Assembly (NCBI GenBank): GCA_030704615.1
Contig: CM060733.1
Location: 70,680,001-70,744,000, forward strand
Direction of reading: 5' to 3'
From: Takakia lepidozioides
Taxonomy: Eukaryota > Plantae > Bryophyta
DNA length: 64,000 nt
A program made the position numbers and the translations under genes. Under the pieces are notes generated by a model, which did no database searches, was not told the origin of the DNA, and worked only from the letters and a program-made list of their open reading frames with translations. Each line of letters opens with the position of its first letter. The first letter of the stretch is position 1. Below are positions 1,356 through 36,690 of the stretch, piece after piece.

Positions 1356-3645
1356 ATGTATACAACGAGAGCGGGGTTTTGGCTAACAGCTCAACGACTC
1401 CGTGTGCGCAGGAAAGATGAGAAACTGTGGCGACTAGAGGAGGCGCATGCCATTGCACAAGGGCACCGCAAAATATTGTGCAACTGCAAAATATGCCATG
1501 GAGGGATCTCGCAGTTTCTACCAATGGCCAAAAAACACCTAACAAAGTATGGGAGGGACCCAAACCTTCGACAGTGTACAGTCCCGGTACACCTTGCACG
1601 ACGCACGCACTCTGACATGCTCGCAGCACGCCGCGCATGTCCGCATTTTGGACAGTCGTGGGAGTGACTGGAGTCCGAACTACGTGTCGTTCTTCCGTTG
1701 GATGTATTGGAGTCATGGAGTCGTAGTGATGGAGTCATGTAGTCGGTAGTGCGTCAGAGTAGTCATGTCCATGACTTCATGACCGTGGATCATGGACATT
1801 TCAACTACGTGGTGTTCTTCCATTGGTTGTACTGGAGTCATGTAGTCAGGGTCATGACTACATGGTCGTTGTTGACTGCCATGTGTGAAGGCAATATGCA
1901 TTTTGGGCTTTTGGCAGTTTGTTGCCATGTGTCATGCCTTCAACGCACTGCCCACTTGGGCATATTTGTTGAGAGCTTTCACTTTGTTGGTCTGTGCAGA
2001 TAGCTGTCTGTATGTGGGGATGTCTCCCTCTATCACAGAGGGTATGTTTGTTTTTGTTTTTCGATGAAAACTGTGTTCCTACTTTGCCGTATTATATGAG
2101 AGTAGTTTTCATTTGTGTTTGTGTCTGAGCTCCACAAGCTACTTCGAAATGAAGTCTGTGGCCGACCAATTTCGTCTCCTGATTCGCAAGTGCGGGGGAG
2201 ACTTGTAGCATTCACCTGTATTGAACTAGTGCAATTCTACAAAGTGTTTGCTTACATGACAGTGTTTAAATGAAATTTCATAATCTAGGAGTTTTGAAAA
2301 AAGCCTGTTCATCGTATCCAATTTATGATTTCATTTGCGTTCACAGGGCTACATTACATCCGACTCTGAAGTGGAGGCTGAATGTAGCCTAGAGAGTGTT
2401 GCAAACGACGTCAATTTGGATGGACAAGACGGCAATGGGCTACGGGGCCAAATTGCCCGTGCTGTGCAAGATGCATTTGAAATATCAGATACCCTCCGGG
2501 AGAATCCCACACCTGCCCCAAATGCCGTTCACTTGGACAATGATGAGGCTGTTGAGAATGGCGCAAATCCCTCTGAAATGCCTGATGGGGAAAATATGGG
2601 CGGAGAAGAAGCAGGCGCCGCCAAATGATCTTCACCATGGAAAACTCATGCGAGAGTCCCAAATCCCCTTATACGATGGGAGCGTTCACAACCGATTGAC
2701 TGCCACATTGATGTTGCTCAATTCTTGCGCCACTCACAGATGTACCAACGCATTTGTGGATGAGTTATTTTCATTGTTGAGGCTGGAGATTTTGCCCAAA
2801 CAAAACACCTTGCCGAAATCGCAGTATGAGGCCAAAAATATGATCGTCATGATGGGTCTAGGATACAAACAGATCCATGCCTGTGAGCGTGGATGTGTAT
2901 TGTTTCGTGGAGACCTCAAAAAGGCTGCTAATTGCCCCAAGTGCCATAGTCGTCGATACATGGACGGCCGTGGGAAGGTGCCCAAGAAGGTGTTGCGATA
3001 CTTTCCTCTCATACCTAGATTGAAACGGATGTTTCGAGTTAAGACGCTGGCAGAGCTCATGAAGTGGCACAACAATCATAGAAGTGCAGATGGCATGGTC
3101 CGGCATGCTGCAGACAGTAAGGCTTGGTGCCATATTGACAACACATGGCCGGATTTTGCTTCAGATCCAAGAAATCTGCGTCTTGGATTGGCACTGGATG
3201 GGGTCAATCCTTATGGCACCAAATCCACTTCTTGGTCCACCTAGCCCATCATGGTGCTCAATTATAATCTACCTCCATGGTTGGTAACGAATAAATTTTT
3301 TGTCATGTTAACACTCCTCATTCCTGGAAAGGAATCTGTGACAAGTGAAAATGTGGATGTTTACCTGCAACCACTAGTGGAGGAGCTAACGACATTGTGG
3401 GTGGGAGTTGCAGCCGTGGATGTGGCAGCCATTGAAGGAGAGCGGGCTTTTAACATGCGTGCAGTCCTCATGTGGTCCATACATGACTTCCCCGCCTATG
3501 GCTTGTTATCAGGTCAGGTTCACCAAGGGTACTGTGCTTGTCCAGCACGTGGACCTCAAGTCGATTCTAGATATTCCCCAGCTTGTAAGAAATTGATATT
3601 CCAGGGGCATCGACGCTATCTTCCCCACAATCATGCCTATAGAAG
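1356..3645 (+). pseudogene. CACTA transposase (TnpD-like), N-terminal half: transposase-associated Zn finger plus Transposase_21 domain
   Basis: Motifs CNCKIC..H, IHACERGCVLF, KVLRYFPLIPRLKR, DPRNLRLGLALDGVNP and WSIHDFPAYG. In-frame TAG at 3242 replaces Trp; frameshift near 2628. Confidence 0.88.
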
Positions 3646-4835
3646 ATCCATGGCTAAGAGGCCTGATACACTTGCAATATCATCATTGCAAATGCTCACA
3701 TCAGAAACAGCCCTGCGTGACCTGGGGTTTTTTTCCAGCACCACGTTCCATCTCGGTTCATTCACACACTCAGAGAAAAAAACTTGCTCGACCTGTGATG
3801 GGAGCACAAAAGGCTGTTCAAGTGGAGGCAACAAGTGGGAGAAATTCACCAATGTGAAGCCAGACTCGTCCTGCTTCATTGACACAGGCTGAGAGCCCAC
3901 ACGTTGTGCACGTACCCATGAACACAATAGCACCGTGGTGTTTGTGGAGCCATAATCCAATTCTAAAATCTCCTTTATGACACCCACATACCGTACGCTT
4001 TCCACCACCTGCTCACGGTCAATGCAAGTACTGTCATGCTGGAAAACAGTAGAGACCCCCGAGTCATATGTCACAAAGGGGCTGTTGAGTCCATCTGAAG
4101 TAACCCTAAAGTGGTTTCCATAAGCCGACATGCTCTTGTATGATGTTGCAATTACTGATGGGGGTTTGGACATGTCCCACAATTCCTTGCAGGCTGAATC
4201 AGTAGCATGGTTGGCAACACTTGACACATGCTGGCGGACTGCTTTTACCAGCCATTCTGCAAAGTGAGGGAGAGCACGGATCTTGTTCTGGTTAGTAGCA
4301 TTTTCAGTCTCCAACCTGCATTTCTCCACCTCATAGGACCTGCCAACACACGCACAACCACAGAAATTTATCTAGTGCAACCCCTGCAGCCGATGGAAGA
4401 ACTACTGCACACACACCTATACAAAGCATACCCATGCATAGCAGGTACCAGAACGTTTGCCACTTACCCCAACATAATGCTCAAACTGGGATGGTTGTGA
4501 ATGACGTAGTCGTGGACAAGCTGCAACAATTCGAGGGTCAACCTCCGTGGTCGACCAACTCCTTCCAATACCCAGCCCGACACTGATTCCTCCTCTCCTG
4601 CATCCCACACTCTCCGCCTAGTAGCATCAACAGAAGACAAGTACTCTGTACAAAATCCCAATGCCTCGTCAAACACGTAGCCCTCCGCCATACTGCCCTC
4701 AAGCTTCGCCAAGTTTCGCACATACCCTTTAAAATCCTTCATTGCTCTCTCCACCGGGTACATCCACCGAGAAGCTACAGGTCCACACAAATCCACCTCA
4801 TCCACCAAGTGGATAAGTAAATGTGTCATAACATC
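3637..4835 (-). pseudogene. CACTA transposase C-terminal half (DUF4218/DUF4216-like), inverted relative to the N-terminal half
   Basis: Motifs HLLIHLVDEVDLCGPVASRWMYPVER..GSMAEGY, YVGVIKEILELDY and EQPFVLPSQVEQVFF. Confidence 0.88.
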
Positions 4836-6482
4836 GTTGCCTTCCTCTATCTCAAGTATATGAAGGGTGGTATTGGGCAAAATTGAATATGTAATCCCGG
4901 TTGATTCATGAATAATGTGGGATTCATAAGACTGGCACTAAGGGTTGCCCTTGGGGGTGTCCTTTTTGCAAGGTGTTGGAGGTGTCCAACTTACATGGCA
5001 TGTCTGTCTGGCAACGTGTCATGACATTTATGTCACTATAGACTTTGGAACGGCATGCAAATTTACACATCAGTTCTGCCTTTGGGTACATTGTTGACAA
5101 AGTGCATGTGCCTTCCAGTTTACATTACATAATTGCCCCAGTGATTTTGTGGGTCTTATATTGGGCAGGCTCGTGTTTATGGACCATTGAATACCAATGG
5201 AGTGCTTTTAAGCTTGGTCCCTACTTATCATATTTTCATTTTTCCCCAAAAGAATCTGGCAATCCGCATAGATGATGCTCTGGCTGGTTGAATGGGTTAT
5301 TTGCGTAGATGCATTTTATGGGCAGTTTCTCTCATGCCCCAGCTATCACCATGTGACTCACTTGTATAGTCCCCCATCTGTGAATGGCTCAAGCAGGGTG
5401 CAGTACATTCAACACTACAATGTTGCTGCCCTGCAGGTGTTCCATGCCTTGCACCACATCATTATTCCCCGATGTCATCCTGCTGCTGTTCTAGCTTGGG
5501 GCAGGTCATTGGGGATATGTACATTAGAGAGAACAACATGAGCTGTTATCTCAGTTGTTTTATCATACAAGAAGCTGAATTCATGGGCTCTCCCATTCTT
5601 AGAAAACCCCCCATGGCAAAGTGGGTGGATCGGAACAGACCGTATTGCCAAGCTTCTATTCCAGTAGCACACGGCGTGGAGCTCCGGGATGGCCTACTAC
5701 AGGGACAACATGCACAAGGCGATATGTTAGAGTGTATTGGATTTCATATTTTGTTGGTGTTCTTGGTCACTGCCCAAAGACTTTTGTTGAGCCCATGTTT
5801 TGCATCACTCTCATGAGTGAATTTTTTGATTTGCATGAATTTATCTATCCCCTGAATGCATCATTTGTTCGTCTGTCATTCCGCAGTATGAGGCTTGCTT
5901 TTGATGTTGTCGGCGATCAACAAACACTAAAATGCACGCCGCCATTTGAACGTAACGTCACAAACAGATGCGGTTCCAGATCGCCTCTCTAGCATGTTGG
6001 CTTCACGTTCCATTCTTCTCCACAGAGCGCCAACGGCCTACTAAGCTGCTTCGTGTGCAACCGTTCCCTTCACTTGCATCCCCCGCACCACAATATCAAA
6101 GCCACTTAACCAATCATATGTAGACACCTCATAAGTTGTTCCATGTCACAGACTCTCCATGTCATGACGACATGTGATGATTTGGCAGAATACATTAGAG
6201 TGGCAGTCATGAAGTCATATGTCCGTCTAGCAATATGCACACGTCATTCACATATGGGCATGACCCTGACTGGTAGTCATATCCACCATGGCAATATTCC
6301 TGGTCAAAGGGTGTTTGACCTGTGTTGCGCAAAGTTCGGAGTCATACAGTCGCATAACCGGCTTCGTCGTGATCTATGTTATGACTTCAAAAGGCATTTA
6401 CGATTGCAAATGGCATTTCTGCCACAAATTGGTCGTGACTGCGCACCCATGGGAGTCATAAAAGCCGCAATCTGTTGTAGTG

Positions 6483-7320
6483 ACGATTACAGAGTAATCG
6501 TCAATGGCTGTGGAACACCCATGTTCTGCAAATCAATATCCCTGTTACTGCTTAAGTCCTTGGACTGATCATAATCAGTATTCGATAATTAGTCAATGAT
6601 ACCAGGAACTTAGGCGAAGCCGTATTGCTACAGGTGTGACTAAGTTCTGGTCAAGTACACAACAAGACAATATACTATGTGCAATGGCATATAAGATCTA
6701 TTCCAAAGATGATACACATTCTCACCATCTCACATTCTCTCATAATACACATTCTCTCCATCTCACAATCACTCTACACATAAGCACTTAGAGAAGCAGT
6801 GCTTTACTTCAGAGTCACCACGTCATAACATAAGTACATATTGGATCACTTAGATCACACCCTGATACATTGATACTTCCTAAGTTGCGTGCAGTCCTTT
6901 TATACTATGCTCGAAAGAGCCATTTACAGCATGCGGTCGTTAATGACCGTTGCCTAACTGCCTACGCAACCTAAAAGGTTTGCTAAAAAAGTGGCCCGTG
7001 GTAGTGGCTCGCACGATCGTGGTCGTGGCTCATGGTCATGTGCCTTAGTGGTACACGGCCCACGGTCCCTCACTACTCCTCCTACTAGTAAAGCCTATGC
7101 TATTGTGGCTGTGTGATGTCGTGGTTCACGGCCCGCGGCTGCTACACTATCGACTACTGCTCCACGTGGTAGTGTGGCCCGTCCTCAGATGCTGCTAAGT
7201 GCTGAGCACTTAGCCATTTCTGCCTCGTGGCCGGGTAGTGTGAAGTGAATCAGTACCCGCCTAATCCCGTCGTGGCTCAAGCTGCCATGCCCTCGTGGTT
7301 CTGGCACTTAGCCATGATCA
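6483..7320 (-). repeat. 3' LTR of the gypsy element (cut by CACTA B)
   Basis: Similar to 36339-36690. Starts TGATCA on the minus strand immediately after the polypurine tract GGAGGGGGAAGATAAA (7321-7337). Confidence 0.8.
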
Positions 7321-11775: not shown

Positions 11776-12674
11776 CACTATAGCAAATGGGGGGGGGTTT
11801 GCGACGCCAGCCGCGCCCCCACGCCCCGCGCGGCGTCGAGCGTGCGACGCCAACCCCGCGGAGCGTGTTTGCGAAGTCGGGCCGTCGCAGCCAAACCCCG
11901 GGGGAGTGAAACTTGGCGCCGGGGCCAGGCGGCGACGCCTGGCCGTCGCATAGAATGATGAAGGGAAAATGGCAGCCCTTCTGTGCGACGCCCACGTGTC
12001 GCCCCCAGCGAAGGGTAGAAGGCATCCCTTTCTGGCGACAACCGGTCGTCGCACGCCGGAAAAAAAACAAAAAAAAAACCATTTCTTGCCTTTTCTTTCA
12101 TTGCAGCCCTTTCTTGCGACGCTCGGCCGTCGCATGGTGGCATGAAGGGCAAAAGGCCCCTGTGACAGCCGGGCGTCGCAAACTGCCCGACTGCCCTATT
12201 CTTTCAAAACAAAAAAACATGTCACAGTTTGGGACGGCTGGCTGTCGCCGTTTGCGACCCCCGGCCTCATAAATCCAAGAAATCATGTCGCAGTTTGCAA
12301 CGCGTGGGGGTTGCAGGCGGCGACGACAGGGCTTTCTAGGTTTAGGGTCAGGGCCTTTGGGGGTTCTTAGTTTTTTTTTTTTTTTTTTTCATATGGTACT
12401 GGGGTAGGGTGTTTGTTTTTCTTTATGGTTTAGCTTGTTGTTGTGGACCTTCTTGTAGATTGTGACATTCATTTTGATAATTCTCTTGATACCACATCTG
12501 TATGTGTTGCTCCAACATATTCATTGCCTCTACCTTCTTTCTTGAAAGACTACCAGCCACAGCCATATTTCATGAATCATAGAAATAAAGTACAATATGC
12601 ATGTACATGTACAATCAATCGAAGGGATGGGTCCAGTTCGGTGCGAGAATTGTTATGTAGCTTTGATTTTGTGT

Positions 12675-15600
12675 CTAATAAACTTGAACATCATCATCCG
12701 GAGCCTCTTCATCCTCATCAAGCTGCAAGTCTTCTTCATCATCGGAGTCATCGTCATAAATGGCCCGGCTCTCAAAAGGCACCTCCGAATCATCCTCCAC
12801 CTCGTTGTCAAAAAAATGGGAATCTAGATGGGGCTTGTACAACTTCCGAGACAAGAACTGGAAAACGATATGGGGTTCTGTCTGGATTAAAACTCGTCCA
12901 TCAAAGATTGCAGCCTTCCTATGGCAAATAGTCAATAGGGTTCTCAAAGTGGGTGAATGGCTTCAGTTCCAGGGAGTAGTGATGTGTGCTTGTTGCTCAA
13001 CGGCGGTCCTGGAAACCTTATAACATTGTCTACTGACATGTCGTCTCCTTCTCCAACATCCGTATCTTCTAGACCTTCATCATATAGGGTCCAGGATGCA
13101 TTGTCCGGGGCGTCATCATCCTCTTCTACCCCCTCTACCCAACCTCCATCATCAGCATCATTATGACCAATCTCTCCGTCCACCGCAATTGCCTCACCCC
13201 ATGGAGATCCGAGACCATGATAGATACGTCTTCCTCTTGGCTGAGCATGCACAACCACCTTCTAATTCCCCCTCTTGTTTTGTCATCGGAGAAGAAAACT
13301 TGCTCCATGTCTGAAGGCCATGAAAAAGGCTCATCGGAGGGACGATGAGTAGGGTTGAGCCTATCTGAATTGACGTGCATGAAACCACAATCATCTTGCA
13401 CTAGTGTTGCGGAGGGCCCCACAAGATGTGGCTGGAACCACCTTCCCTTGAAGAGAAGAGGCTGGTACCTTGTATACTGAAGTTGGAGTATGCTCTCAAG
13501 CTCTCCAATGTACTCAAGTTTGCTCATAGCAGGTCGTGTATCTCCCTTGCCCCACACGGAGTCTTGCCAATATGTGGCACACAAGCCAGAATCAAAGGTT
13601 GTTTTGCGCTTCATGTCAAGAGCACGAATGCGGAAATGACGACCGTGAACCCAAACCGCCGTGTATGAGATCGTGAATTGAGAGGGGCCCTTGCAATGTC
13701 TTGCACCAAATCTGAAACCACCTCTCCTTGAGCAACGACATCATAAACTGAAGTCCGAAGCCGATATTGGAATGAATTTAGAGGCTGCAATTCCATGGGC
13801 AAATTTTGTGAAGAAACATTCCGGCGGCCCGCTCCTCGTCGTGGGCGTCTAGTAACCGGCCTTGGATGGTTCCGCCTCCATGCAAGCGTCTCCTCCTCTC
13901 GTTGCTGAACAAGATTATTGTATCTTGCCTCCCACTCATGTATGGATGGGGTGTTGTTCAAGTCTTGGCGACCACTGCTTCCACCAAGCGGCTGATGGAC
14001 TCTTCGGACAACTCTGTGGTCGCCCGAGTCATGCGCTTGCTCAATCACCAAGGTCGGCAATTTTACCCTCTTCGATTTTTTGGGCAAAACGATGTCATTG
14101 GTTCGTGCATCCTCCTGTTCCTTCCACATCTGAGGGGATTCCTCATCCACCCTTGCCATGTACTTTGTGCAATAGAACATAGCTTCTTGCAATGTATACC
14201 CCTCCGCCATGCTACCCTCCGGGTGCGCCATTTGTCTTACAAATCCTTTCAAAGTCTTCATATAACGCTCAAGGAAGTACATCCACTGGGAATGAGCGGG
14301 GCCGACAATCGAAGCCTCTTCCACTAAGTGCACTACCAAGTGCACTTGGATGTCAAAGAAGGAGGGAGGAAGGTGCATCTCCAACATACACATTAACCTC
14401 CTTCTTCATGCGTGGAAAATCTGCTTCTTCCAATTCTTTGGAGCAAATCCACCAGAACAAGCCTCCCAATCTATAGATTGTCTCACGAACCTCGGGAGTC
14501 AATGTCCCACGTACTGCAATGGGCAAGATGTCTTGCAATAGATTGTGGTAGTCATGAGACTTCAAACCATGGACCCCGTCTTCTTCGCTGAACTTCGTAC
14601 GGAGGGATGACCCATAACCAGTTGGTGTTCGGATAGCACTTATGGTGGCTATCACTTTCTTGTATTCCTCCTTTGTCCATTGCCAAGGTGCGCGCCTATA
14701 CTTCCACCGTACAACACCCTTTGGGTCCACACCATTTTGTTCGGCCCATAGATGGCGCATGCGACCCTGCTCCTCAAGCTCTTTTCTAACACTGAGAGAA
14801 TCTCCTTTTGCAGCCACTCCCTTCTTTGCCGGCATGCCATGAAGAACCCGAAAAAGGGACGAGCAGACATTCTTCTCAATATGCATGGGATCTAAAAGAT
14901 GGCGAATCTTCAGGTCCTACACATATCCCCACCCACAAAGACTTACACAAAAAAATTTACGTGAAAGTGACAATGCAACGCATACCAAATGTGCAATATC
15001 ACATGCATGCATAGGGATATGGACGGTGTTTTTGTGGAATATGTACCGCCCAATATGACAACTTGTAGAAGATTGAAAGTCGTTTCATGCCGGGCACGTC
15101 CACTTCACCGTCCGTGCCGGCATGGGCCTCCTTCCATCGGTCCTTCCAAAACTGCCCGGACGGTGTCATAGGGGGGGGACGTACTTCCTCTTTGCCATCA
15201 AACAAATGTTTCTCTCTTCTTCTCCATCGATGGCTCATAGGAAGAAATTTTAGTAGTTGGGATACACCATCTTGTGAAGATGGCGGGAGCTATGTGCATC
15301 AAGATCATCGCCACAATGCAAGCATGCATGGTACCCTTTGGTGCTTAGCCCCGAGCAAACAGTTAGTCCTGTACTACACATCCCGCCACATTAGCAAAAA
15401 CAAAAAGTTGTAATGTGCATGGCCCATAATGCCATCTACCCCACTACAAGACTGTCGCCGCTACTTCAATCAATCCCAATCCTCGTCCTCATCCGGCATT
15501 GACAAGTGAATGTACGCGGGTCGTTCATGGGGAACATAATATACCTGGATAATCATGCATTGTCCAAAGCAAGATGCCTCTCATCTAAAAAGATTGTCCG

Positions 15601-17050
15601 GCCATAGGGTCAAGTGAAGCATCCAATGCCGGGAGCCCTCTCCATAGCTCTTTAAGTTCATCAACAAGAGGTCGCAAGTACGTGTCCATGTTTGCCACTT
15701 GTTTTTTCCCTCTGAGACATTAACATCATTGTTTCAATGCTCCACCAATATGCAGATTATACTACAAAATGAATTACACATCTTACTCCATGATTATGTC
15801 ACTCATCAATCTTGCATCCGAATTGCGTCAAAGATCAAAAGTTTAATGTAAAGTCGAAGGCAATAATAAACATGAAATGAGTACACTCACCTGGCACAAT
15901 GGCAGCCAACATGATATGGCATTTTTTAATTGAAAGATACGGAGGGATGTTGTAATTCACCATGGTCACCGGCCAAGTGGAATGACTACATGACTGGATA
16001 GAGAATGGGTTGACCCCATCCGAGGAGAAGCCGAGGTGGACATGTCATGGGTCCTCCAAGAGAAAAGGCCACATCTCTTCAATATGTCTCCATGCTTGTG
16101 AATCTTGTGGCCCGCACACCTTTCCCGGGGGGCTCCGATGCGAGGCGTGCCATCTCATGAGTCTGGCCAATTTGGGGCTTCGGTACTGTGCCCTCAATCG
16201 CGGGATGATCGGAAAGTAATGCATTTCCTAGGATGAAATACCCCACGCCCCGCACATGTAATCATCCCATTAGCACACATAATACAACACCCTTATGCCT
16301 TTCCCTTTATGCAGCCTCTCCCTCATTTGGGTGTGAATGGTCAAAACCAAACGTCGCTCCTTCCACTCCTCACTCACTCCTTCCAAAACCACAATCAGAT
16401 CTTGCATGAGTACTACTATCTAATAATCTCCATGCGAGGGGGATGGCGCTTATACCTTGCGTGGTACATTTTTCCCTTGGACATCATCCCGATATCGGTC
16501 TTTCTTGCACTTTGGGCACTTGGTGAGATGCGAATCCTCTCCATAGTACAGGGTTTTATCACATGGACATGCATGAAAAATCTTATAGCCCATCCCCACA
16601 GAGTCCAAGACTTCGCGCGCCTTTTTCCGCGACCGTGGCATCTTGGGTTTCAAGTGTGGAACAAGGATATAGTCTGCAATAGTTCGCATTATGGCAGACA
16701 TCCCAACATTACTTATGCCAAATCAAATTTGAAGATTGAGCAAAAGTAAGATTGTTGAAAGTCGACGCACTTTCGCCCCTTCGTAGAAGGGAGTTCTCGC
16801 CTCCCTCTCCATGTCATTTGAGGGGGCCATTTCAGGATCATCGATTGGCCGGGTTCCCTCTTCATGGGATGCATCAGCGCCCACATGATGCATTAAGAGA
16901 TCCTCCATGGCTTGCACATCCTCCTGGTTAATTCCATGCTCATTGTTGTTGTCACTGTCACTATCACTGTCATCGTCATCATCGTTCGGTACCGTGGGGG
17001 CGGCGTCTCGCCCACGGCTCCCGCCTGATGTACTTGGGTTGTTTTCAGAT
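12675..17050 (-). pseudogene. CACTA A transposase (Transposase_21/DUF4218/DUF4216), intron-containing and disrupted
   Basis: Motifs YKIFHACPCDKTLY, SSDGVNPF, WTMHDYPG, MHIEKNVC, GLKSHDYH, PPSFFDIQVHLVVHL, WMYFLERYMKTLK and DEPFSWPS. Confidence 0.9.
12810..13025 (+). mobile_element. L1-type LINE fragment (zf-RVT region) inserted in the transposase 3' end
   Basis: WKTIWGSVWIKTRPSKIAAFLWQIVNRVLKVG..CACC....ETL; flanked by TTGTC on both sides. Confidence 0.7.
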
Positions 17051-18105
17051 GGGGTGCCAAGAAAGACCGGGAAGGGATGGACAAAGTCCTCGAACAAATG
17101 AACATAGGGACATATATTATAATGTGTCCTTGCAACCATACACTTCATTATAAGCGAAATGCAAACAACAACCTTCAATGTGTGTGTGCATCAAATATGT
17201 CATTCAATAATTACATGTATGTGCGCAACATACACGTATGCAAAATTTCAAACCCAAACAAAATCATTTGCCCCCCCAATGACGCATTCACCCTATCAAC
17301 CAATTTTTGTTTATTAATGTGAAAGAAAATCCTCTCATGCCATTGCACCCAACAAACGGATGTGGCTCAAGCTTCATTTTTTCCTACATGTGCTTAAATA
17401 TGTGTGCAACACCTGTACAAAGATCCAGCAGGTAAAAAATAAAAATAAAAAAATTGCCTCCCCAACGACGCACTCACCCTTGCACCAAATTTGAATTTCA
17501 ATCGATTTTAAATGAATTTAAAATAAATATTTGCATTTAGAAAATATATGATTGCGGTTTTGAGGGGCGTAATGATTTTATTTTTAGCTGAATTTTTTTC
17601 TGTGACATCGGGCTTTGCACCACTACAACCGGGCTTTGCACCACTACAACCATGCAAAAAAAGGGCAAAAAAAAATGGAAAAAAAATAAGTGTGTTTCTA
17701 GGGTCACTTTTACAGAACTCTCTATAAAGAGTGCATGAAGTTGAAGATAACTCAACTTTGGAATGCAAATGAGAGAACAAAATCTGGTTATGGGTCCAAA
17801 TGCCTTTTGTTTACTCCCAAATCTTGCACGCACAGTGCATCTGCTATCATTAAGCATATGGCTTGAAAATGGAATAAAAAAAAATTCATCTGCAGGCGAA
17901 ACACAATTTTCCGTCTCTATGACACGTAGCTGCATTCAACACTAGAATGACCCATTGAATCAACTTGGTCCAAGCTCATATTTGGTCCACATGTGCATAA
18001 GTATGTTTAGATCACATATGCAAAGTTGCAACCCACACGAGCAACAAGATTTTTTTTTACATCAATCGATTAATCGGATGTATACAAAGTACATCATGAG
18101 AATAT

Positions 18106-19576
18106 CTACAATGCCCCTCTACGCGATCCCTGTCTCAAAGGAACCCTATTTCTATCATACACATCCCACTCACGCTGTAATCGGAGGTCCCAATCATCCC
18201 GGGAGAACTCGTATGATGCAAATAGTTCGCTGCCAGCCCTAATAGTCCTACTAGCACATGTCATCACAAACATGTGCATCCCCTCACAGTATACTGACGT
18301 ATGACCACAAAAGCTCTCATGCCCATCGCTTCGCTCGTCCCATACTACATTGGTTCTCCTAAGATGACCAAAAGAACTATTGACCAGCCCAGCAACATTG
18401 CCGAAGATGTCGGGGTCACCATCACAAAATCTGATCTCAATGGGAGACAACCCCCGTCTACGTACATCCTGTCCGTTGACACACAAAATGTAGGGTAGGA
18501 TGTATGGGGCTTCGAGGCGTAATGTACGGAACTCCGCGGAGGTGTAGTATGGACCGTAGTAGGGAAACAAGTCCACCATGTTGTTTCTCCGAGGAGGAAC
18601 CACAATATGCAGGGTCTGTAACGGCTCTCACAACATACCGTCTCCCCCAATAATCGAACTCCACATTTTCTCGGATGGGGGTGGGAGGGTCGAGATGATT
18701 CCCCCAACAACGAGGCTGGATGGTCCTCAGTAACATAGTCCTATGCGCTTCCCATCGGGGGCGAGGATCCGGCTTAGGCCGCCCAAGCCGAAGGGGAAAA
18801 CCTAGGGCGAAGCCGACCCCTCCTAGGGGTTCGGGGGGCACATGCACGTGGAGGTGGAGGTGGAGGTGGAGATGGTACTGCTGGCGGAGGAGATGAAAGT
18901 GGAGGTGGTTGAGATGTAATGTCGGAGGTGCAGCCGGGGGTACAACGTCCGGATCAGGTACAACCGGAGGTGGATCAGGCAAAGAAACAAACGGGGGGGG
19001 GGGGGGGGGGCTGCTCGTCGCCGGCCATAACGCCTACGACACCTATGATACCCCTCGACCCTACGCATCTCATCTACGTGCTGCTGGGGGAACCAACTGG
19101 TCACATCGGGCACATGCTCTGGCACAAATTCTGCAAGTAGACCGGCGCGAAATGCCTCCTGTGCAATGTGATTGCGAGCTTGGGCATCAAGTCGTGGCTG
19201 CAATGTGCGTAGTGAACGACGTATCAATACTTATGTCGTAATTTTGATTCATGTATGCTTACCAATCATACTATATTATTAGATAAACCTAAATGTACCT
19301 TGAATGAATGTTAATGAGAGGAGTGGGAAAAACACTCACCTTTGCCGCATCCGCAATCTTGTTCTTCTTGTAATGTTTTTTGACAACATGCGGTCGCCGC
19401 CTCGGTGGTCTGGTGCCGCCAGGCGGTATCCGTTCCCAACACTTAGTGCACCAACACTCAATCCTGTCGTGGAAGGGGGGGGGGGTCAAAGGTGGATGTG
19501 GTTGGACGGGGTGGCCCCCAAGGGGGCAACCCGTGGCACGCCCGACTCGATCCCGGAGTGTCAGCATCCTCCGCAT
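18106..19576 (-). pseudogene. CACTA cargo gene: Zn-finger exon, Pro-rich linker and SET-domain-like protein
   Basis: Exon 19576-19340 (CWCTKC..H, AAG|GTGAG) joins in frame to the acceptor at 19197. SET-like motifs FPYYG, DG..GNVAGLVNSS..N and ASRTIRAGSELFASY. Frameshifts near 19000 and 18600. Confidence 0.7.
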
Positions 19577-19929
19577 CACCTGAAATTTGGCCTGATTAGG
19601 AACATTCCAGATCAAAAACAAAAAAAACCAAGCATGTCGGGGGCTGAGAGCAGCAAGTGCTCGAGGTCTCGAGAGGGGGCAACAAAGAGAAAAGAAAAAG
19701 GTGGGGGGAGGGAAGTGACTGAGCACCACCAGCAGTTGCTGAGCACCACGGGCTCAGTTACTCCCCCCCCCCCCCCCCATTTTTTTTTTTTTTTTGGTTT
19801 CCTGATCTCTCCCTCTCTCTGTCCCTCTCTGTCCCTCTGTCCCTCTCCCTCTCTCTCTCTCTCTCCCTCCCTCTTTTTTTTGCTGTTCACAAAAGTAAAC
19901 AAACCACAAGGGAGAGAGGGTGCAGAAAA

Positions 19930-20870
19930 AAGTTAAAAGATTGTACTCATAAGACGTTGTTTGCCGTAGCCTTGTGGCCATTGACCCCGCGCCCAGTTTG
20001 AGCGGAAACAAAAGGGACAGAACCTGCCTCTGTCAAGGGCTGACGTTGATAGTAAGACTTACCTTCATATATAGAATTAATCTGGGTTTTCCATATATCC
20101 TCTAGAAATCCCTTCACACAAGCATCAAACTGTTGTGTGTGATTTGCCCAATAACTAGGCCTCAGGAGGGCCTGGGCTTTTGGCTCAGCCTTGAGACTTT
20201 CAAAGTTGGTAAACAGAGGTACAGGCACAATTCCCTTGATAGATTTGAAGAGAGCGTCTCTTTGGTGAGAGAACCCCGAACAGTGTATCAGAAAATGTGT
20301 ACTGTCTTCAGATTGCCCACACAATGGGCAATTGCACTCTCCCTTTCCTCTCTGCTTCTGTTTGTTGTTCAAAGGTAGGCTTCCTACCTGAGTTTAAATT
20401 TCAGTCTAGTGCCGAGAGTGGGTAGACCCTTGAGGTCATCCAAGATGTCCTCCCCCATGTCACTGACTGGAAACAAGTTCAGGGAAGTTTTCTACCTAAC
20501 TTCATTTTCATCAGACGATCTCATGGCAACAGACATGGCTTTGGACACTACAGCCTCTAAGTCAGATTTATCCAGCAGGGTCAAGACTTGCGGCTCCAGG
20601 TCCAGGTCCTTGAGAATCTCTCTTCTGCCAGGACTTAGCCTATTTGACAAGGCGGTCCTGTTTCCAAGATATACAGTCGATTAACTTAGGATATCCGGTG
20701 TTGGGCATATGTTGCAGCTGACCCCACCATCTGACCTTGAATTCATCTCGTCGGGAGCTTAAGGAGGGAATGCCAAACTCACCCCAAACAGCCACATTGG
20801 CTGTTTTGGAGCATGCTGACATACACTCCTTAAGCACCCCCACTTGAATGGATTCTAGAGACTTAGCGTG
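19930..20870 (-). mobile_element. 3' fragment of a non-LTR retrotransposon (RTEX/CR1-like C-terminus with CCHC finger)
   Basis: SKTANVAVWGEFG and CPLCGQSEDSTHFLIHC. Related pieces lie in the opposite orientation at 23085-23360 and 25280-25720. Confidence 0.7.
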
Positions 20871-22479
20871 GGAGAGAGTGGGAGAGGGAAGATATTCACG
20901 TCATGTCAAGACATGGACAAGACCCATAAGGATCATTGTCAATTAAAGACATAAACAGCCCTGGATAGGGCACTATCTCACATTTCCAGTCTTGTCAAAT
21001 CATCCCAAAAGACACCACCCAATCATCCAAGACAAAACAGGGTGGGAGGGCAGGGTTTGTTCTTGTGTGGGACAAGATAAGATATTGTTGTCCCTGTGCA
21101 TGTTGCAAGGCCTCTTGGTGCAGCCTGTACATATACCAGCAGCTTACCAATTCAACCATTAACTATGGCAGGTCATGCATCAGCCAAGGCATAAGGACCA
21201 GCCTGCATTTTGTCAGAATCTCAGTATCCCACCAAGCAGTCCAACTTGATCCAGATGAAGTAGATTCCATATCATTTGTATTCACCCCAAGACATGTGAT
21301 CATACAAGGTATCAAGGGAATGTGAATGCAGCCTGTCAGGTTGAAGACTTGTACCAACAAATAACATGAACAGCCGAGATCCAGCCTCTTTTGTATAAAA
21401 AACAAATGGCAGGTCATAGGCCTGATGTCATGATAGATCCAAAACAGTAGGTAGGATTCCATTGCAGCTTACCATCCTCATCCTTCAGGAGTTCCATGCT
21501 AAGACATGCAAAGAACACCTTGCTACAATCCAGTACACATCAGAAGTAGGCCTGACAAGGAGCAGGGCAGTACCCTACCAGGCTGCCGCCTTAAACTTCA
21601 TGGCCATCAGATCCATAGTTACCCAAAACCGCAAAAAACATACCACCAAAAACCAGATCCTCTTTGGCCAAAATAACTTACAACCTAGCTTAGTAATCCA
21701 CAGGCTGTGCTGTCAAAGATTAAAAGGTAGGGTGTGGTTTGTATGCAAGCCTCAGGAAACAAGCCCGTCAGGCCGAGCTGCACATCGGCGGCAGAACGAC
21801 AAAAGCCAGAACGCAGGCTAGAGCATATCAAGTCAAGGGCAGTTGGGTTGAAATCGGGGCTGCAGCCAGCAGCCACCTCACAGCGCGCACAACCCTAGGT
21901 CTCCTCAGCCCATATCCCAATCTGCATGCTCAAGAAACTTCAAAGTAGGCGAGGATCCTTACCTGGTCCCATCACAAGCCCCCACAAAAACCAACAGGTT
22001 AGTGAGGATTGTGGAACCCCAGGTGAATCACAAACCCTCACACTTGTCATCGATGTCAACTAAGAAACTCAAAAGCAAGAGAAAGAGATAAGAACATGAG
22101 AATCCCTAAACTCCAAAGGCACCTTAAGCGATTGGGGATTATGCGCCATCACCACCCGCAGCAAGCCGCCTCCACAAAGCACATAAGCAATGAAGCAAAG
22201 CAGGCACAAACGCGAGGCACTAGAAAAGAGGGAGAGAACTTCCCATCATAAGCATCCTTGCTAAGCACAGAAAAAGCCAGAGGCGGGAAGATGCCACTGC
22301 TTTCATAGCGGTGTTTCCCGCTGCAAGAGAGACAAGGCGCCGCCTTCGCGCCCCCCAGGCGCTCGTCTAGCATGGGTACGACACCACAAACGGGGCAGCC
22401 ACCGAAGCACGCCCGCCATAACATTCTCCTCGCGAGCTCAGAAGCACATCGCGTGCTTCTGACAGCGGGAGAGACGACA

Positions 22480-23903
22480 TAGGGTTGTCCCCCGATTTTT
22501 CATCCATGGATGAAAAATGATAGGACGAATCCATATACCCTGACGGATTTCATCCGTAGCCAGGCTAAAAATAGGTTTTGGGGTAGGGTTAGGGTTTCCA
22601 CCGTAATAAATCATAATTAGGGGTAGTAAAGATCAATTCCAGGTCATAATCACATCACCCATAGACAACTCACTTGTGTCAGGATGAAAAAGTAGGGAAT
22701 ATCATCCGTGGCAGCACCTTACCTCCATCTAGGTAATTCTATCATTCCTTTCCAGACCATCCGGTATGGATAACAAAAGTCAATAAAAGAGGAATGAAAA
22801 ATTATCACCCTGGTAGTTTTTCATCCGGTACGGATGGAAAAACAGGATGCTGTTGGCAACCTCCATAGAGGTAATTCTTTTCTTCCATGGTGACTCATCC
22901 GGTATGGATGAGAGTCAATAGAGGAGGAATGAAAAGGCCAAAAGAACCATCCTAGAGGTAATTCAGTGTCCATCCTGGTGGCTCATCCGGTATGGATGAA
23001 AAAGCCTGATAGAGGAATAAAAAATCCACACTGATAGCAAACTGCCAATTCCCAGTAGAGAGGGAGAGAGAGGGAGAGAGGGGGGTTCTCTCACCAAAGA
23101 GACGCTCTCTTCAAATCTATCAAGGGAATTGTGCATGTACCTCTGTTTACTAACTTTGAAAAAGTCGAGGCTGAGCCAAAAGCCCAGCCCCTTCTGAGGC
23201 CTAGTTTTTGGGCAACTCACACACAGCATATTGATGCTTGTGTGAAGGGATTTGTAGAGGATATATGGAAAACCTGGATTAATTCTATATGTGAAGGTAA
23301 GTCTTACTACCAACGTCAGCCCCTGACAGAGGTAGGATCTGTCCCTTTTGTTTCCCCAAGAGAGGGGGCAACAAAGAAAAACAGAGAATGTGGGGGGGGG
23401 GAGTGACTGAGCAGCAGCAGCAGCTGCTCAGTCACTCCCCCCCCCCCCCCACCTTCTTTTCTTTTCTTTGTTGCCCCCTGATGTCTCCCTCTCACTCCCT
23501 CTCTCTGTCCCTCTCTCTCCCTCTCTCCCTCTCCCTCTATAACTCTTTGGATTTCATCTGGCCTTAACCTTTTGAGGTTATTTAGTTTTTCATCCCAGCC
23601 TTTTTCATCCAAATCTGGATGATTTTATTATAGGGTGATGAAACTTAATATACAGAAAGCTGGATTTACCATCTATTTCTTTCATCTAAACTGGATGATC
23701 TACATAAATAATGGTTACCTATTATAAAATCCAAGAGAATAATAAAACTACCATCATAAATTATGGCAGTTATTAAACCTAAGCCTATACCATAACCCTA
23801 AAAGATACATTTCTATGGGATGTCATCCATTGACAAAGTGCCTCTCTTGATAAAATGTGATATTTCATCCACCCTGGATGAAAAATCGGAAAGTTTTGCC
23901 CTA
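22480..23903. mobile_element. Possible non-autonomous hAT-like element with CATCCGGTATGGATG palindromes; contains a LINE fragment
   Basis: Ends TAGGG...CCCTA, with the inverted sequence CCGATTTTTCATCCA near both ends. No matching TSD found. Confidence 0.4.
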
Positions 23904-25279
23904 AGCAGGCCGACACACTTCACAGCACTGAACTCGTGCTTCAGTGAACCTTGATGATGCGCCGTATAAACCTGCTCCCCTGCTGCTACATGGTACTCGT
24001 GATGGCTGGCTCTTGGGATGCGCATTGGTGGTTAAACAAATTCTTCTCTGGCAGACGACAAAGCCGTGATCGCTTTGATCATAAACTCATGGTTCTTTAT
24101 TTTGCAGCGGCGCTTTTACTCCTTGTTGGGAAGTACTCTATCCCTATTTATCTACAGATTACATGTTGCTCTCTCTTTGTGTATGAGCCATTCTCTATCT
24201 GTGAACGCTTCTACTCTGATTGCGTTCTGTTGGAGACGATCTGTTGGACGCCATGGCGCAGGGCATACCACAAACACTCAAGGTTTTTTGAGTTTACCAT
24301 TGCTTGAATTGTGATCTGTACTTGCTTTAGAATTCAACACTGACATGGATAGCAACTGTGAAGACCTGCCATTTACCTGCTGCATCCTCACTAACACACA
24401 TCGCTATGTGGTGGTTTTTGGGACGGGCACAGGTGAGGGTCTTCACTTGTCTTGATTTCTTGAAGCTTGCAGTTCCTGTTCTTGCAAATGTGGATAATGC
24501 TGCTGCCTAAGCTGCTGATGCCATCTGCTATTTCAAACTGCCACCATGCCGCTTCAGACCTGCTCCAAGATGGCTCCAATGAGGGTCTGCTTCTCTCCTT
24601 ACCCCTGTTTATGGTTTTTTACAACCACATTTGCATGTGTAGGAGTTAAGCTATGAAGGATACAAGGATACAAAATAGCAGTTATTACTCTGACTGCCTT
24701 GATACTTGGCTCTGAAATGAGACTTCTTGGTATGACTCTGATGGATCAAAAGGATAGGCTTTGATAGATAACACACATTCTTCAAGGCCCTCATATCATT
24801 TTGGTTTCATGGCTTGATAACAAACAGGGGTTTCTGAGCTGCTCTTTCACCTTGGCAGAACTATTTTATGAGGCCTTAAAATACCATTCTAGGCCTATAC
24901 CTGCTTAAGGGGGCTCTACCCTGTTGTTTCTTCTTCCTTTTTAAGAATCTTGCTTATATCTTGGTTCTAAAACATCATCTTCAAACCAAACCTGCAATCT
25001 GGTTTTTGAAATGAGTTTTTAATGGATTTTTGAGATGATGATGTATACTATGGTGCTTTCATGATATGAATGACCTGGAATCCCACCCTCCCGCCCTGTT
25101 TTTTCAGAGACCCTAAAATGTAATGGGGTATTCAAATGAGATTGTAAACATGAAAGAGAATGTTAGATGGTGCCCTGTAAAGGGCTGTTTTGTCTTTCAA
25201 TGACAATGACCTTAGCGGTCTTGTCCATGTCTTGACATGACATGTATATCTTCCCTCTCTTCTGTGCTACTCTATTTTA

Positions 25280-25720
25280 AGCTCCCGACACCCTAAATTC
25301 AAGGTCAGATGGTGGGTTCAGCTGCAACATATGTCCAACACCAGATATCCTAAGTTAATCGACTCTATATCTTGGAAACAGGACCGCCCTGTCAAACAGG
25401 GTGAGCCCTAGGAGAATAGAGTATAAGAGATTCTCAAGGATCTGAATCTGGACCCGCAAGTCTTGACCTTGCTGGATAAACCTGACTTAGAGAGTGTAGT
25501 GTCCAAAGCCATGTCTGTTACCAGAAAATTGTCCGATGAAAATGAAGTTAGGAAGAAAACTTCCCTGAACCTGTTTCCAGTCTGTGACATGGGGGAGGAC
25601 ATCATGGATGCGCTCAAGGGTCTATCTCACTCTTGGCACCAGACCTAAATTTAAAGTCAGGGCAGGAAGACTACCTTTGAACAGTAAACAGAAGCAGAGA
25701 GGAAAGGGAGGGTGCAATTT
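25280..25720 (+). mobile_element. LINE fragment, inverted homolog of 20340-20740
   Basis: Direct nucleotide similarity (TLLDKPDLESVVSKAMSV...). Confidence 0.7.
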
Positions 25721-26889
25721 CCCTGACGTACCTCTGCTGCTGCGGTGTTGTCGCGGCTGTCAGCGGCGCGAGTCCCAGCCGCTGCAGGGCGTCTCTCCCC
25801 CGCTCACCACGGCTCTCTCTCTCTCTTCAGCTCGTTAGGTCGCGCCTCTGCGCGGCGTTCCTACCACACAGGAGAGAGAGACATCAGCCCGTGCTTAGGG
25901 CAAGTAAAAAAGACAGAAAGTGAGGGAGGAGGCAGTGCTTACTTTGGGCGTTGGAGCGGCGTTGGGGCAAACTCCTTGGGGCCTTGCGACCACCTTGGGC
26001 TCAGCAGCAGGTGCGTTTCTCCTCCACCCTAAACCCCACTCTCTGAACTACATCTCTCCCAAAGAACAAACGAAAAAGGGACGGGAAAGAGATGCTTCAA
26101 GCACTTAGGGAAAAAAAGGGCGCGGCGCCCACGTGCGACGCCCAGCCGTTGCACGCCTGCGCCTGCCCTTTTTTGAAATGTAAAAGTGAAGTTTGCGACG
26201 GCTGGCCGTCGTTTCTTATGACCCCCGGCCATAAATATAAAAAAACACGTCGCCCCCCGCGACGGCTGTCCGTCGCGGGGTGCGACCCCCAGGTAAAAAA
26301 CAAAAAAAAACTCGTCGTCCAATCCGACGCCAGGGTGTCGCAGGAGGCGACCGCCGGCCTTTCTGGATTTACGGTTTAGGGCCTTTTGGGTTTCTTAGTT
26401 TTTATTTTATTTATTTATTTTTTCATATGGTAGTGGGTTAGGGTGTTTGCTTTTCTTTATGGTGCTGGGTTTTGGATTGGCGGTTTTGGTTGTGGGTCTT
26501 GGGGTTAAAAGGATAAACGGTGTAAATTAGGATTCACATACCCAAAATGTGGTTCAATCTGATAATCGCAAAGCGCTGGGTCTCAACAAATTTTTCCATA
26601 GTGTGAGCATCCTGAAGATAGAACGAGATGAAGGATTTATTGTCTTGGGCTCTAGCACCATAGAGGAAGGATTTGTGTGTTGGTGGTGTGTGTTAATTCG
26701 GGAGGTTGTTGCTGAGCCGGATGCTCAGTTGAGCACACCCCCGGCAACCAAGATGGGTGAAATGTACCTTGGCAAGCACATCACCCGTTCGGGGGCCCAG
26801 TATGGCCACCTTTTGGTCACCCCATAGCGACCCCTTCCTCCGCAGCAAAGGCTGCACTTGCCAAGGCCCAACGTCAGGTTCAAGGGTCT

Positions 26890-28187
26890 TTGAAAGCCTC
26901 CATTGCCAGCCCATTGTTGTCGATGAGGGAGGAGGAGACGAGGAGGGCCAATGAAGTGGCCAAGATAGCAAAGCGCCTCGAAGAAGTCAAGCCGGGTGAG
27001 GGCTTCTACCCTGATACACATTTGGGGGGGGGAGAGGATGAGGTATGGGCCGGTTCAGAGCAGCCTAGCCGATCAGCGACACCGCCCCCTGAGCCTGAGC
27101 GGTCAGCAAAGAAGGGCCTGGACTACGGGGCGCCGCCACCGGCTATGATCCACATCTGGAATCTACTTCCAGTGGCGCTCCGGGAGGGGATAGAGCAGGC
27201 ACTTCCGAAAACGGGGATTCCTCCCACATCGGGTGACACCAGGGGCGAGTCGGACAAGCTTGCAAAGGTACAACTGTCGCACCTTGTTCCATGATTTATC
27301 CTTTCCTTTGCATGCATGATTTTTCTTTGTTGTTTGTTTTCTTTTTTGAATTTGGGAGGTTATTTGTCTTCAGGAGGCAGCAACATGGCTGGCCTCATTG
27401 GTGCAGTCCCGTGGGGTTGCCAATGAGGGAGAGCACGTGGTATTCATGAAGGACCCGAACACCAAAGGTAAGAAGAAGAGGCCTCGATCTCCCGAGATCC
27501 CTTTTACCATCAATGAAGGGGCTGCCGAGGAGAGAGAGAGAAGGGAGAGGGAGAAGGAGAGGGAGGAAGTAGCGGGGAAGGGGAAGGAAAAGAAGAAGAA
27601 GAAAAATAAGTCCCATGGAGAGGAAGGGGTGAGTGTGCATGCGGGGGAGGGCAGTGGGGTAACAAAGGAGCAGGGAAGGAGGCTACAAAGAAGGGAGAGG
27701 GTGGGATGGCCTTGGCGATACAGGACGTGGAGTTGGCAAAGATCGTGGTGCCACCGGTGGAGGTGAATCGCCATGGCGACCCCTGCGGTGCGTTCTGGGA
27801 GGCTATGAAGAAGCCAGCCTTCAAACTCGCATTGAGGTGGTTGCCTTTGCACATTGAGTGGGCTGATTAGCACTTTGGCGCGAAGCGGGCGTATGCCCGT
27901 GAGTTAGACCACCGGTTTCCGGGCAATTGGAGTGACACAAGGGTGATGGAGATGGTGGGGCGAAACTTGAAGGACAAGAGGTACCGTGCCAAACAGATCA
28001 TTTGGAGGGCAATGGAAAAGGGGGCCATACCCAAACCACCTTATGGAATTACACAGGTTGGCAAATCCTGAATCATGTCACCTTCCATTTGTCGCATGTG
28101 CATTAATGAGGTGGATTTGATGCAACGTATGTGTGTAATTCACTAATTGTTGGGGGGGGGGGGGGGGGGGGGGGGGGGGTGGGTATC

Positions 28188-28218
<31 letters not shown>

Positions 28219-28770
28219 TGGGTGTCGTGGGATCGAGTGCGCGGAGAGACTTGATGCGCAAACAAGGCCAAATTTGACTGGGCACTCCGAAGCACAACAG
28301 TCCGCCTTGACAAGCACGAATCCACACACAAGTGGGGCGTCGACGGATCCAAGGTTTTATCTTGCGATTTGTAAGTCGTACTTCCCTATTGATTTTGTTA
28401 TGTCTTCTTTCTGGCTCCATCATCGCGAAGAACTGACCTTTAATTTGTGGCATGTGTAGCAACGCGCGTTTGAGAGGAAGCCATCTCCGTTAGAGTACAA
28501 CTACGCCAAGGAGCATGGTTGGCAATCCCTCATGAAGAACATGGCCAACACAGAGGGAGAGTGCACTACAGGGCACTAGTATGAATGAGGTCGAGGATCA
28601 TGCCCAAGGATTGGATGAGAGCTCTGTGGGACTTAGGGGAACGCCGCCTCATTTACGTGCTCTGGCAAAGGGCGCGGAGTCATCAGGCTCATCGGATAGC
28701 TCTGAGTCCTCCACTGAGGATGACTAGTCCTAGTCCATGTAGGTCCCAGGGTCAGTCTACTGAACCCTTG
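26890..28770 (+). pseudogene. Second CACTA gene (TnpA-like accessory), spliced and degenerate
   Basis: Exon-like segments ANEVAKIAKRLEE..KLAK|GT, a Lys/Glu-rich block and WLPLHIEW..ELDHRFPGNWS..NLKDKRYRAK, running toward the right TIR. Confidence 0.45.
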
Positions 28771-29610
28771 TGAGCTTTTCAGCTCATGTCTTGTAAATAT
28801 ATTTCCGTCTTTCCATCTTCCATCTTATTCATGTGTCGCACCGTCCTCACCCTCGATTCATGCTTGCTCAATTGTGTACCTGCTAATTCAAGAAATGGAA
28901 CTGTAAGTTCTCCCCATCCCCAAATACAAAACCAGGAAAAAAAACAAAAAACCCCCCCAATTCACCCCCAAAATGAACCCCCAACCCCCCCCACCAGGCT
29001 GCCCTCACAACTGCAGCACGTCGCCAATGGCGACGTGTTTTTTAATCCGGGGTCGCAACCCGCGATGCCCCTGGCGTCGCGGAGACCGCCTCCCTGCCTG
29101 CGCCACTTTTTTTTTTAAAAAATTAAAAAAAAAAAACGCGACGCCGGAGCGTCGCAACAACCCACGCCCGAGCGTGGCGAGACCGACTCCAGCTGTTTTG
29201 TGTCCGCCCAATAGTCGCTGGCAGCGACGCACGTGCGTCGCTTGGCGTACCACCCATCCCACCCGGTTGACTCCCGGTCAGGTTAGAAAAAAAAAAGGTG
29301 ATGCGACGCCGCGCCGGCGCCCCCACCAGCGCTGTCGGCTGGAGGGCGCAATGGCGAGACGTCACTCGAAGAGGCTCCTGCCATCGGTGCGGACGGCCTG
29401 AAAAAACTGACGTCCGGCAGTCGCGAGAGTTTGGGGCGGGGCTCGCGACCCCATACATACGTCGCACTTTTGCGACGTCATTTTGGCGACGCCCTTGCGA
29501 CTGCAGGGCGACGGCCGGGCGTCGCAAATTCTGCGCCTCCCACGTGCCTGAAAAAGGGCGTTTTCCCGACGTTGCGCAGGCATCGCAAAGGCCCCCCTTT
29601 TCCTGCAGTG

Positions 29611-36220: not shown

Positions 36221-36690
36221 CCCAGTATGGTCGCCAAATGTTAACCGCTGGTTCGTGACTTAGACGAAATGGGCCTTCATCGGTACAGTCCATTTCCCGA
36301 GGCACTTATCAGAGGTTGTCCGATAGTATGTCTACAGGACGATTACAGAGTAATCGTCAATGACCATGCAACACTCATGTTATGCAAATCAATATCCCTA
36401 TTACTGCTTAAGTCCTTGGACCGATCATAATCAGTATTTGATAATCAGTCAGTGATACCAGGAACTTAGGCGAAGCTGTATTGCTATAGCTGTGACTAAG
36501 TTCTGGTCAAGTACACAACAAGGCAATCTACTATGTGCAACGACATATAAGATCTATTCCAGAGATGATACACATTCTCACCATCTCACGTTCTCTCATA
36601 ATACATATTCTCTCTATCTCACAATCACTCTACACATAAGCACTTAGAGAAACATTGCTTTACGTCAAAGTCACCACGTCATAGCATAAA
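36221..36690 (-). repeat. Primer-binding site (TGGCGACCATACTGGG) plus truncated 5' LTR (36239-36690)
   Basis: On the minus strand the LTR ends ...TAACA followed by TT-TGGCGACC; similar to the left LTR. Confidence 0.75.

Follow-up and report, generated by a model that had tools for sequence, protein, structure and literature searches.

The minus-strand segment 18106-19197 of the window (the whole stretch of 64,000 nucleotides of Takakia lepidozioides DNA analysed here) is, as judged from its sequence and from a structural model, a SET-fold domain. It lies as cargo in the 5' region of a CACTA transposase gene, between a CxCxxC exon and the transposase pieces 13138-17088, i.e. where the initial annotation had placed it. 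Taken as a whole, the explanation to which we incline, with slightly more belief than doubt, is that this stretch would be an alternative SET last exon, whose product would methylate the chromatin of the element itself and thereby keep it active. The copy present in the window is, from its sequence, dead and unable to make either of the two predicted proteins. The coordinates of the features are collected in Table 1.

Table 1. Features of the SET-bearing CACTA insertion, in positions of the window.
Feature	Position	Strand	Details
Whole CACTA insertion, 17,835 bp	11776..29610	-	imperfect CACT-starting ends, 3-bp target duplication
CACTA TnpD-type transposase exons (Transposase_21, DUF4218, DUF4216)	13138..17088	-	in-frame stops, frameshifts
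AT-rich stretch, GC 0.36	17089..18105	-	predicted: SET transcript ends here; in the transposase transcript, remainder of the long intron
SET exon	18106..19197	-	helical start, proline-rich linker, pre-SET stretch, SET domain, stop
SET core	18196..18609	-	FPYYG, DGDP, GNVAGLVNSS, N, A.RTI.AGSELFASY including the terminal tyrosine
Site of a small frameshifting deletion removing the GxG SAM-binding motif	18610..18622	-	window copy
Pre-SET and first SET strand (…YWGRRYVVR)	18623..18736	-	out of frame with the core in the window copy
Predicted intron, 142 nt, GT...AG, GC 0.34	19198..19339	-
Zinc-finger exon (CWCTKC...H), common to both predicted products	19340..19580	-	GTGAGT donor 19339, phase 0

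The motifs FPYYG, DG..GNVAGLVNSS..N and A.RTI.AGSELFASY follow one another in the order expected for SET, as had been noticed from the letters, in the minus-strand stop-to-stop frame 18109-18627; the frame is closed by a stop at 18108-18106. A profile made from 28 relatives meets the window in two frames, its positions 79-112 in one (the pre-SET stretch, E 0.0006 in a search of the window's six frames) and 128-262 in another, with 13 nt between them and positions 113-127 absent from the SET exon; the core score of this profile is not independent, since the relatives had been found with the window frame. A contig from another copy, over 18299-18822, has 31 extra letters, 2 of them at 18797, which leaves 29; this surplus of about 29 nt would fit the frame change at GxG, as judged from gap counts and not from a displayed insertion. 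The exon begins at 19197 and takes in a proline-rich linker with further frameshifts in the window copy. Along the exon the frame shifts at a poly-C run near 19000, at 18912, at 18797 and at about 18615; other copies are +1 at 18912 and +2 at 18797 relative to the window, and the shift at the poly-C run is suggested by the frames alone. The string SSIIGGDG, which is in frame upstream of a TGA, was considered as the GxG motif and ruled out, as relatives match the neighbouring frame at this place. The loss of GxG noted in the initial annotation is thus real for the window copy but does not extend to the family: 26 of the 29 relatives reaching that far have GxG, and its absence appears as damage of the window copy only.

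Taken alone, the window frame scores below the cut-off of the Pfam SET model (PF00856; E 0.12, 13.3 bits for a cut-off of 22.4); word-indexed protein searches with this single frame gave no match, nor did single-sequence searches of the PDB. An exhaustive search over 1.84 billion representatives retrieved 40 relatives at E<=1e-3, with 28-56% identity in the aligned parts; 33 of them meet Pfam SET at E<=0.1 and 20 exceed its cut-off. No methylase Pfam match was found in the SET exon, its neighbours or these 40 relatives. The Atlas returned SET for 28 of 30 matches (top score 0.95; recognition 2263, just below the 2300 mark), and when the family profile was compared with PDB sequences the top 54 of 57 rows were SET-domain entries, the best of them being LegAS4 (E 4e-5).

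An AlphaFold2 model of the window frame, built on 35 relatives, reached a pLDDT of 83.6, and Foldseek gave SET enzymes in every row listed for it, with SET8 as best (E 8.5e-4, TM 0.53). The intact relative P0008 was matched more firmly (Foldseek E 2.6e-7); its comparison with Set1 by VIA gave a Z of 12.0 and an rmsd of 2.6 over 125 residues, and for SET enzymes overall Z was 10-12 and rmsd 2.5-3.1 over about 125-139 residues, at 15-29% identity. The fold proposed from the motifs is therefore recovered by both tools. Enzymes acting on H3K4, H3K27, H4K20 and H3K14 are all found among the top structural matches, no more than 1-2 Z units apart; as Set1, PRC2, SET7/9 and SET8 are tied as folds, the substrate is not readable from the match.

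The canonical SET motif is NH(S)C. The NSS first read in place of NH(S) in the window turns out to be general: S replaces the canonical His in 34 of 35 relatives, preceded by N in 30 (and by Gln in 4), so that NS for NH appears as a family-wide trait. As a family, these 35 sequences likewise lack the post-SET cysteines and the His that is canonical in RFINHSC. The terminal Tyr of ELxxxY is kept in 32 of them and the E of this motif in 34, both being present in the window; Y28, Y46 and N93 are found in 32, 33 and 35 respectively. LegAS4 carries YINFS at the NH motif and is, according to the opening lines of abstracts, an H3K14 methyltransferase, which means that a non-NH motif does not exclude activity. 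Catalytic activity of the intact copies seems to us fairly likely.

The splice sites predicted in the window are all in phase 0: the donor at 19339 and the two acceptors at 19198|19197 and 17089|17088. The SET exon can thus be spliced in frame to the zinc-finger exon, as had been claimed. The same order, i.e. CxCxxC exon, short AT-rich intron, SET exon with its stop, spacer and transposase exon, is found in three other lineages. In the seven related loci long enough to show these sites, which were picked by consensus and AT-rich borders, the intron between the zinc-finger and SET exons is AT-rich and 76-135 nt long, and the spacer from the SET stop to the transposase exon measures 112-301 nt; the donor is in phase 0 in all seven, as is the transposase acceptor, and for SET six have an AG acceptor in phase 0, L018 having AA. 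In each of them the SET frame ends in a stop, with no donor common to them nearby. Phase-0 sites across four lineages, together with the stop that ends the SET exon, support a model with two isoforms, and on these sequence grounds it looks quite probable that a single donor is joined to either a near or a far acceptor, both in phase 0. The earlier proposal of one transcript with two isoforms hence keeps its ground as regards phases and stop, but not for the dead window copy, which makes neither.

The zinc-finger exon had been taken as the first one, from 19576 to 19340; we find instead a probable internal exon, entered through a phase-1 acceptor at 19581|19580 like its counterparts in relatives. 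The latter display a phase-1 acceptor at the start of the exon, several of them without a later Met, and the AG at 19581 in the window matches it. With an internal exon the ATG at 19576 may not be the start, and the true start probably lies further upstream. Other copies are without 10 nt at 19469, a difference that would align the 19580 frame with the finger. The window exon has no Pfam match and only reaches E 0.48 against the profile of the relatives' exons, its putative zinc-finger label coming from motif and position; in four of five relatives (L001, L002, L005 and L006) the equivalent exon gives Transpos_assoc (PF13963) at E 0.007-0.07, below cut-off. The window also holds a second, rearranged CACTA (1260-4937), with a zinc-finger exon at 1260-1664, Transposase_21 on the plus strand at 2393-3889 and DUF4218 plus DUF4216 on the minus strand at 3640-4937; no SET match was found between 1260 and 4937. 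An element that has the zinc-finger exon without SET suggests that the exon is the transposase's own, SET having been acquired in an intron of the transposase gene.

Assembled contigs and gene models give a mixed picture of the junctions. In P0003, a contig assembled from a run of unspecified kind, zinc finger and SET stand in one frame which ends after SET. The gene models P0002 and P0043 of Riccia sorocarpa and P0083 and P0084 of Adiantum nelumboides splice SET into an apparent first exon of the transposase, from a point before the last tyrosine of SET or from mid-domain; P0031 and P0032, whose source is unchecked, do likewise. In contigs from other copies, none of the 15 joints listed (of 61) falls at a predicted intron, two of these runs being RNA by guess only. 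Contigs of X8 and X6 run unspliced through 19198-19339, and these runs may be DNA or pre-mRNA; one X9 contig, a single case, stops 8 nt beyond the SET stop.

The SET stretch occurs in other copies and other lineages, so that the concern of a one-off captured fragment, raised with the initial annotation, does not apply. The DNA run X1 yielded 14,078 contigs over 12500-19740, with a summed depth of 67-81 thousand on the SET core versus 63-131 thousand on the transposase, and of 21-55 thousand on the low-complexity linker and the zinc-finger exon; long single contigs reach 54-108. This depth is a rough sign of many copies, most of them with the SET stretch, and does not give a copy number. A scan of metagenomes gave 55 pattern matches and 25 confirmed loci, 12 of which have a same-strand CACTA transposase 300-740 nt downstream of SET; these 12 represent three lineages and not 12 independent cases. 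Eight of the remaining 13 end within about 600 nt of SET, and the other five (L003, L004, L020, L023 and L025) have no transposase match in the 1.0-4.1 kb downstream. Judging from their sequences these five form a separate SET subtype, and the layout is not universal among members. L023 and L025 have in common a downstream frame, 60% identical, whose family was not recognised. Conserved opposite-strand frames lie behind the transposase in L002 (6841-7711) and L005 (7567-8025); they have no clear Pfam match and may represent another accessory gene. Among viral contigs, 0 of 8 pattern matches were confirmed as relatives. The named relatives come from the liverworts Riccia sorocarpa and Calypogeia fissa and from the fern Adiantum nelumboides, to whose models L001 is nearly identical. 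Trees of SET and of transposase, with 8 rows, both recover the L008 group, and place the window on a long branch.

Selection was measured on the relatives, the figures thus not covering the window's own family. For the SET core, dN/dS (Nei-Gojobori) is 0.10-0.15 in five unsaturated between-family pairs (L002, L005, L006, L017), the four pairs with L001 being saturated; among close copies it rises to 0.39-0.86 (6 pairs), and to 1.15 for L006/L017, which have 5 differences. The transposase gives 0.13-0.19 in three pairs and 0.48-0.75 in three close pairs. Between related families SET is therefore under purifying selection and as constrained as the transposase; after insertion it decays.

The ends of the CACTA insertion are CACTATAGCAAAT at 11776 and CACTGCAGGAAAA at 29610, both beginning with CACT; the same three bases stand outside both ends, the target duplication being GTA on the minus strand, and clusters of TGCGAC/GTCGCA occupy the subterminal regions 11800-12320 and 29019-29521. 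The flanking sequences on the two sides continue one another as a Gypsy integrase: the insertion splits the integrase of a Gypsy-type LTR retrotransposon (6482-36689, with RT, RNase H and integrase), whose likely LTRs are the 92%-identical direct repeats 6482-6833 and 36338-36689. In the transposase, DUF4218 is above cut-off (E 9e-30), while Transposase_21 (E 0.001) and DUF4216 (E 0.0008) are met on fragments and below cut-off. The window transposase is 30-56% identical to related transposase pieces, and differs from other copies by indels at 13687, 15250, 16442 and 17090.

Further inserts are present inside the insertion between about 19600 and 26100, and with them and an inner end-like region near 26100 the 17.8-kb insertion may be composite. 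Other copies diverge from the window at 19592, so that an insert likely lies just upstream of the zinc-finger exon; the sequence that they carry upstream of this point was not found within the window. The region 19600-25700 contains inverted repeat pairs with a zf-RVT-like remnant (20004-20277/23082-23355 and 20326-20762/25277-25723) and a short repeat (19671-19876/23360-23548). The stretch 26101-29610 forms an inner unit: its left end begins with CACT, and it contains a region 74% similar to the other subterminal region of the CACTA. Its plus-strand frames 26761-28068, which look like a decayed accessory gene and which we presumed to be TnpA-like, have no Pfam match in the frames scanned; a TnpA-like identity was confirmed neither for them nor for frames in L002 and L023.

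Elsewhere in the window, a 438-bp inverted repeat (1-438 and 42322-42759, 99.5% identical and 41.9 kb apart) starts from the very first base; its two arms may be the termini of a young giant element, or else result from a recent inverted duplication, with the nested elements inside. A large element at 43168-55400 displays a weak match to the SWIM finger (E 0.02), long frames without annotation and, at 47180-48630 and 54560-55330, arrays of the palindrome-like unit GGAAATGCGGCACCGCATTTCC. In two of its regions, 49606-50292 and 52176-53403, the frames are reminiscent of the ParB-like and DNA-methylase motifs of Plavaka accessory genes, and neither region has a Pfam match. The initial annotation had counted the SET exon as a second epigenetic enzyme in the window; this count finds no support in the candidate 52176-53403, which has no Pfam match in either frame. 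Its downstream frame (52732-53403) has no PDB match and no confident Atlas match, and a methylase identity was not confirmed. At 58588-60264 lies a host-like gene with a signal peptide and a weak apolipoprotein match (59941-60264), with repeats that we take to be of LEA type.

In the model that we propose, the SET exon would be an alternative last exon of the transposase gene, one transcript giving either of two proteins: use of the near acceptor would produce a zinc-finger-linker-SET protein of about 450 residues, and use of the far one a zinc-finger-transposase. The SET protein might reach the copies of its family via the common zinc finger, on DNA or through the transposase, and there methylate a histone lysine on the chromatin of the element, favouring expression. 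That the zinc finger does the targeting, that the substrate is a histone and that the effect is anti-silencing are tentative points, for which TnpA and VANC serve as analogies, and they leave us a little on the side of doubt.

Other arrangements of the same gene can be considered. The three parts could be joined in a single zinc-finger-SET-transposase fusion protein, methylation then riding with the transpososome; the Riccia and Adiantum gene models do join SET to the next exon, and in the window a GTGAGT at 18173 (phase 1) follows the terminal tyrosine. However, a stop comes soon after this tyrosine in all seven loci, without a common donor; the GT sites near the SET end are mostly in phase 1 or 2 whereas the transposase acceptor is in phase 0; and in the joined models the terminal tyrosine or most of the domain is missing, as would be expected of gene-finder artefacts. 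The fusion hence appears quite improbable. That SET would be a captured host fragment of the Pack-CACTA type, carried as a passive passenger, is hardly credible: capture of gene pieces is common in CACTA elements and the window copy is broken, but the stretch has the same position and phases in four lineages, a dN/dS of 0.10-0.15 and a depth close to that of the transposase, and the 40 matches have the motifs of one family, 0 of 20 proteins looked up naming a canonical host SET gene.

The activity of the domain might also differ from that proposed. A non-catalytic module, acting as an adaptor to histone tails or partners, or as a dominant regulator competing with the transposase via the common zinc finger, would agree with the substitution of Ser for His at the NH motif, seen in 34 of 35 relatives, with the lack of post-SET zinc cysteines and with the presence among the close folds of PR-type domains, some of which are inactive. 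It seems rather unlikely to us: GxG, the asparagine of NS and three tyrosines persist among sequences that share only about 30-45% identity, and the best sequence match is a solved enzyme with a non-NH motif. An active enzyme could, alternatively, modify a non-histone substrate, e.g. the transposase or a host silencing factor, or write a repressive, self-limiting mark. In favour are the tie of SET7/9, SET8 and PRC2 enzymes with Set1 among the folds and the lack of a reader or post-SET domain indicating a mark; we nevertheless judge these possibilities unlikely, as the element-encoded accessory factors that were tested, VANC and TnpA, are anti-silencing in the accessible parts of the sources.

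Several known systems resemble the alternative SET exon in part. SETMAR (Metnase) is a single domesticated primate fusion, SET and a mariner transposase being in one gene. Its SET domain is among the fold matches of P0008; here, by contrast, we deal with a multi-copy mobile family in which SET has its own stop. The minimal SET enzymes SET8/KMT5A, Set1/MLL and LegAS4 have the same fold as the intact relative, LegAS4 being also devoid of the NH histidine, but at 15-29% identity no subfamily can be assigned from the match. Another is PAG2 of the Plavaka elements of red algae, which belong to the EnSpm/CACTA superfamily: the available text of 10.1101/2025.02.11.637652 reports a SET domain (PF00856) in it and proposes a modulation of chromatin. 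Both cases thus have SET carried by an EnSpm-superfamily DNA transposon. PAG2 is described there as an accessory gene in a three-gene cassette (PAG1-3), joined to an N6-adenine methylase domain, whereas the SET of the window, as far as the two are compared by description, is an exon inside a land-plant CACTA transposase gene with a zinc-finger exon predicted to be common. SET genes are also reported, in the portions available of PMC12730594 and 10.1101/2025.02.11.637652, in HarbingerS and MuDR of Phytophthora and in Helitrons; these are likewise transposon-encoded SET methyltransferase genes, but of other superfamilies and hosts, and the description given there is of accessory genes rather than of an alternative transposase exon.

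For the splicing design the parallel is En/Spm, which makes TnpA and TnpD by alternative splicing in maize and in the Arabidopsis ENSPM3 (PMC13547354; 10.64898/2026.08.24.746577, accessible text); in Arabidopsis Spm3, TnpD and the anti-silencing TnpA come from one gene in this manner (10.64898/2026.08.24.746577, same extent). In both cases a transposase and an accessory regulator come from the same CACTA gene, as is predicted here. TnpA is, however, a DNA-binding protein, and the accessible text of the two sources names no SET domain for it, the term 'SET domain' having 0 occurrences in PMC13547354; the alternative product here would come instead from an enzyme-fold exon upstream of the transposase core. 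The accessible part of 10.1101/2024.09.22.614159 contains nothing relevant to the SET-CACTA layout. In the literature searched, at the level of titles and abstract openings, we found no description of a SET exon in land-plant CACTA transposase genes. SET cargo in transposons is already known; the alternative-exon design within the transposase gene was absent from the papers searched.

In its widest form our proposal is speculative, and we put it forward with more reserve than conviction: an ancient clade of land-plant CACTA elements, in liverworts, ferns and probably mosses, might have a transposase gene giving either the mobilising enzyme or a zinc-finger-targeted, NS-motif histone methyltransferase which writes an anti-silencing mark on its own copies. 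The plant anti-silencing factors VANC and TnpA are, in the accessible parts of the sources, DNA-binding proteins that change chromatin indirectly or by an unknown route. If the proposal is true, a transposon's own SET enzyme, borne on an exon that is used with the common zinc finger, would provide a direct enzymatic route to anti-silencing; it would be a transposon-encoded, sequence-targeted histone writer in plants. Some annotations of liverwort genes as 'SET domain-containing' would then be transposon exons, and the counts of histone methyltransferases in these plants would be affected.
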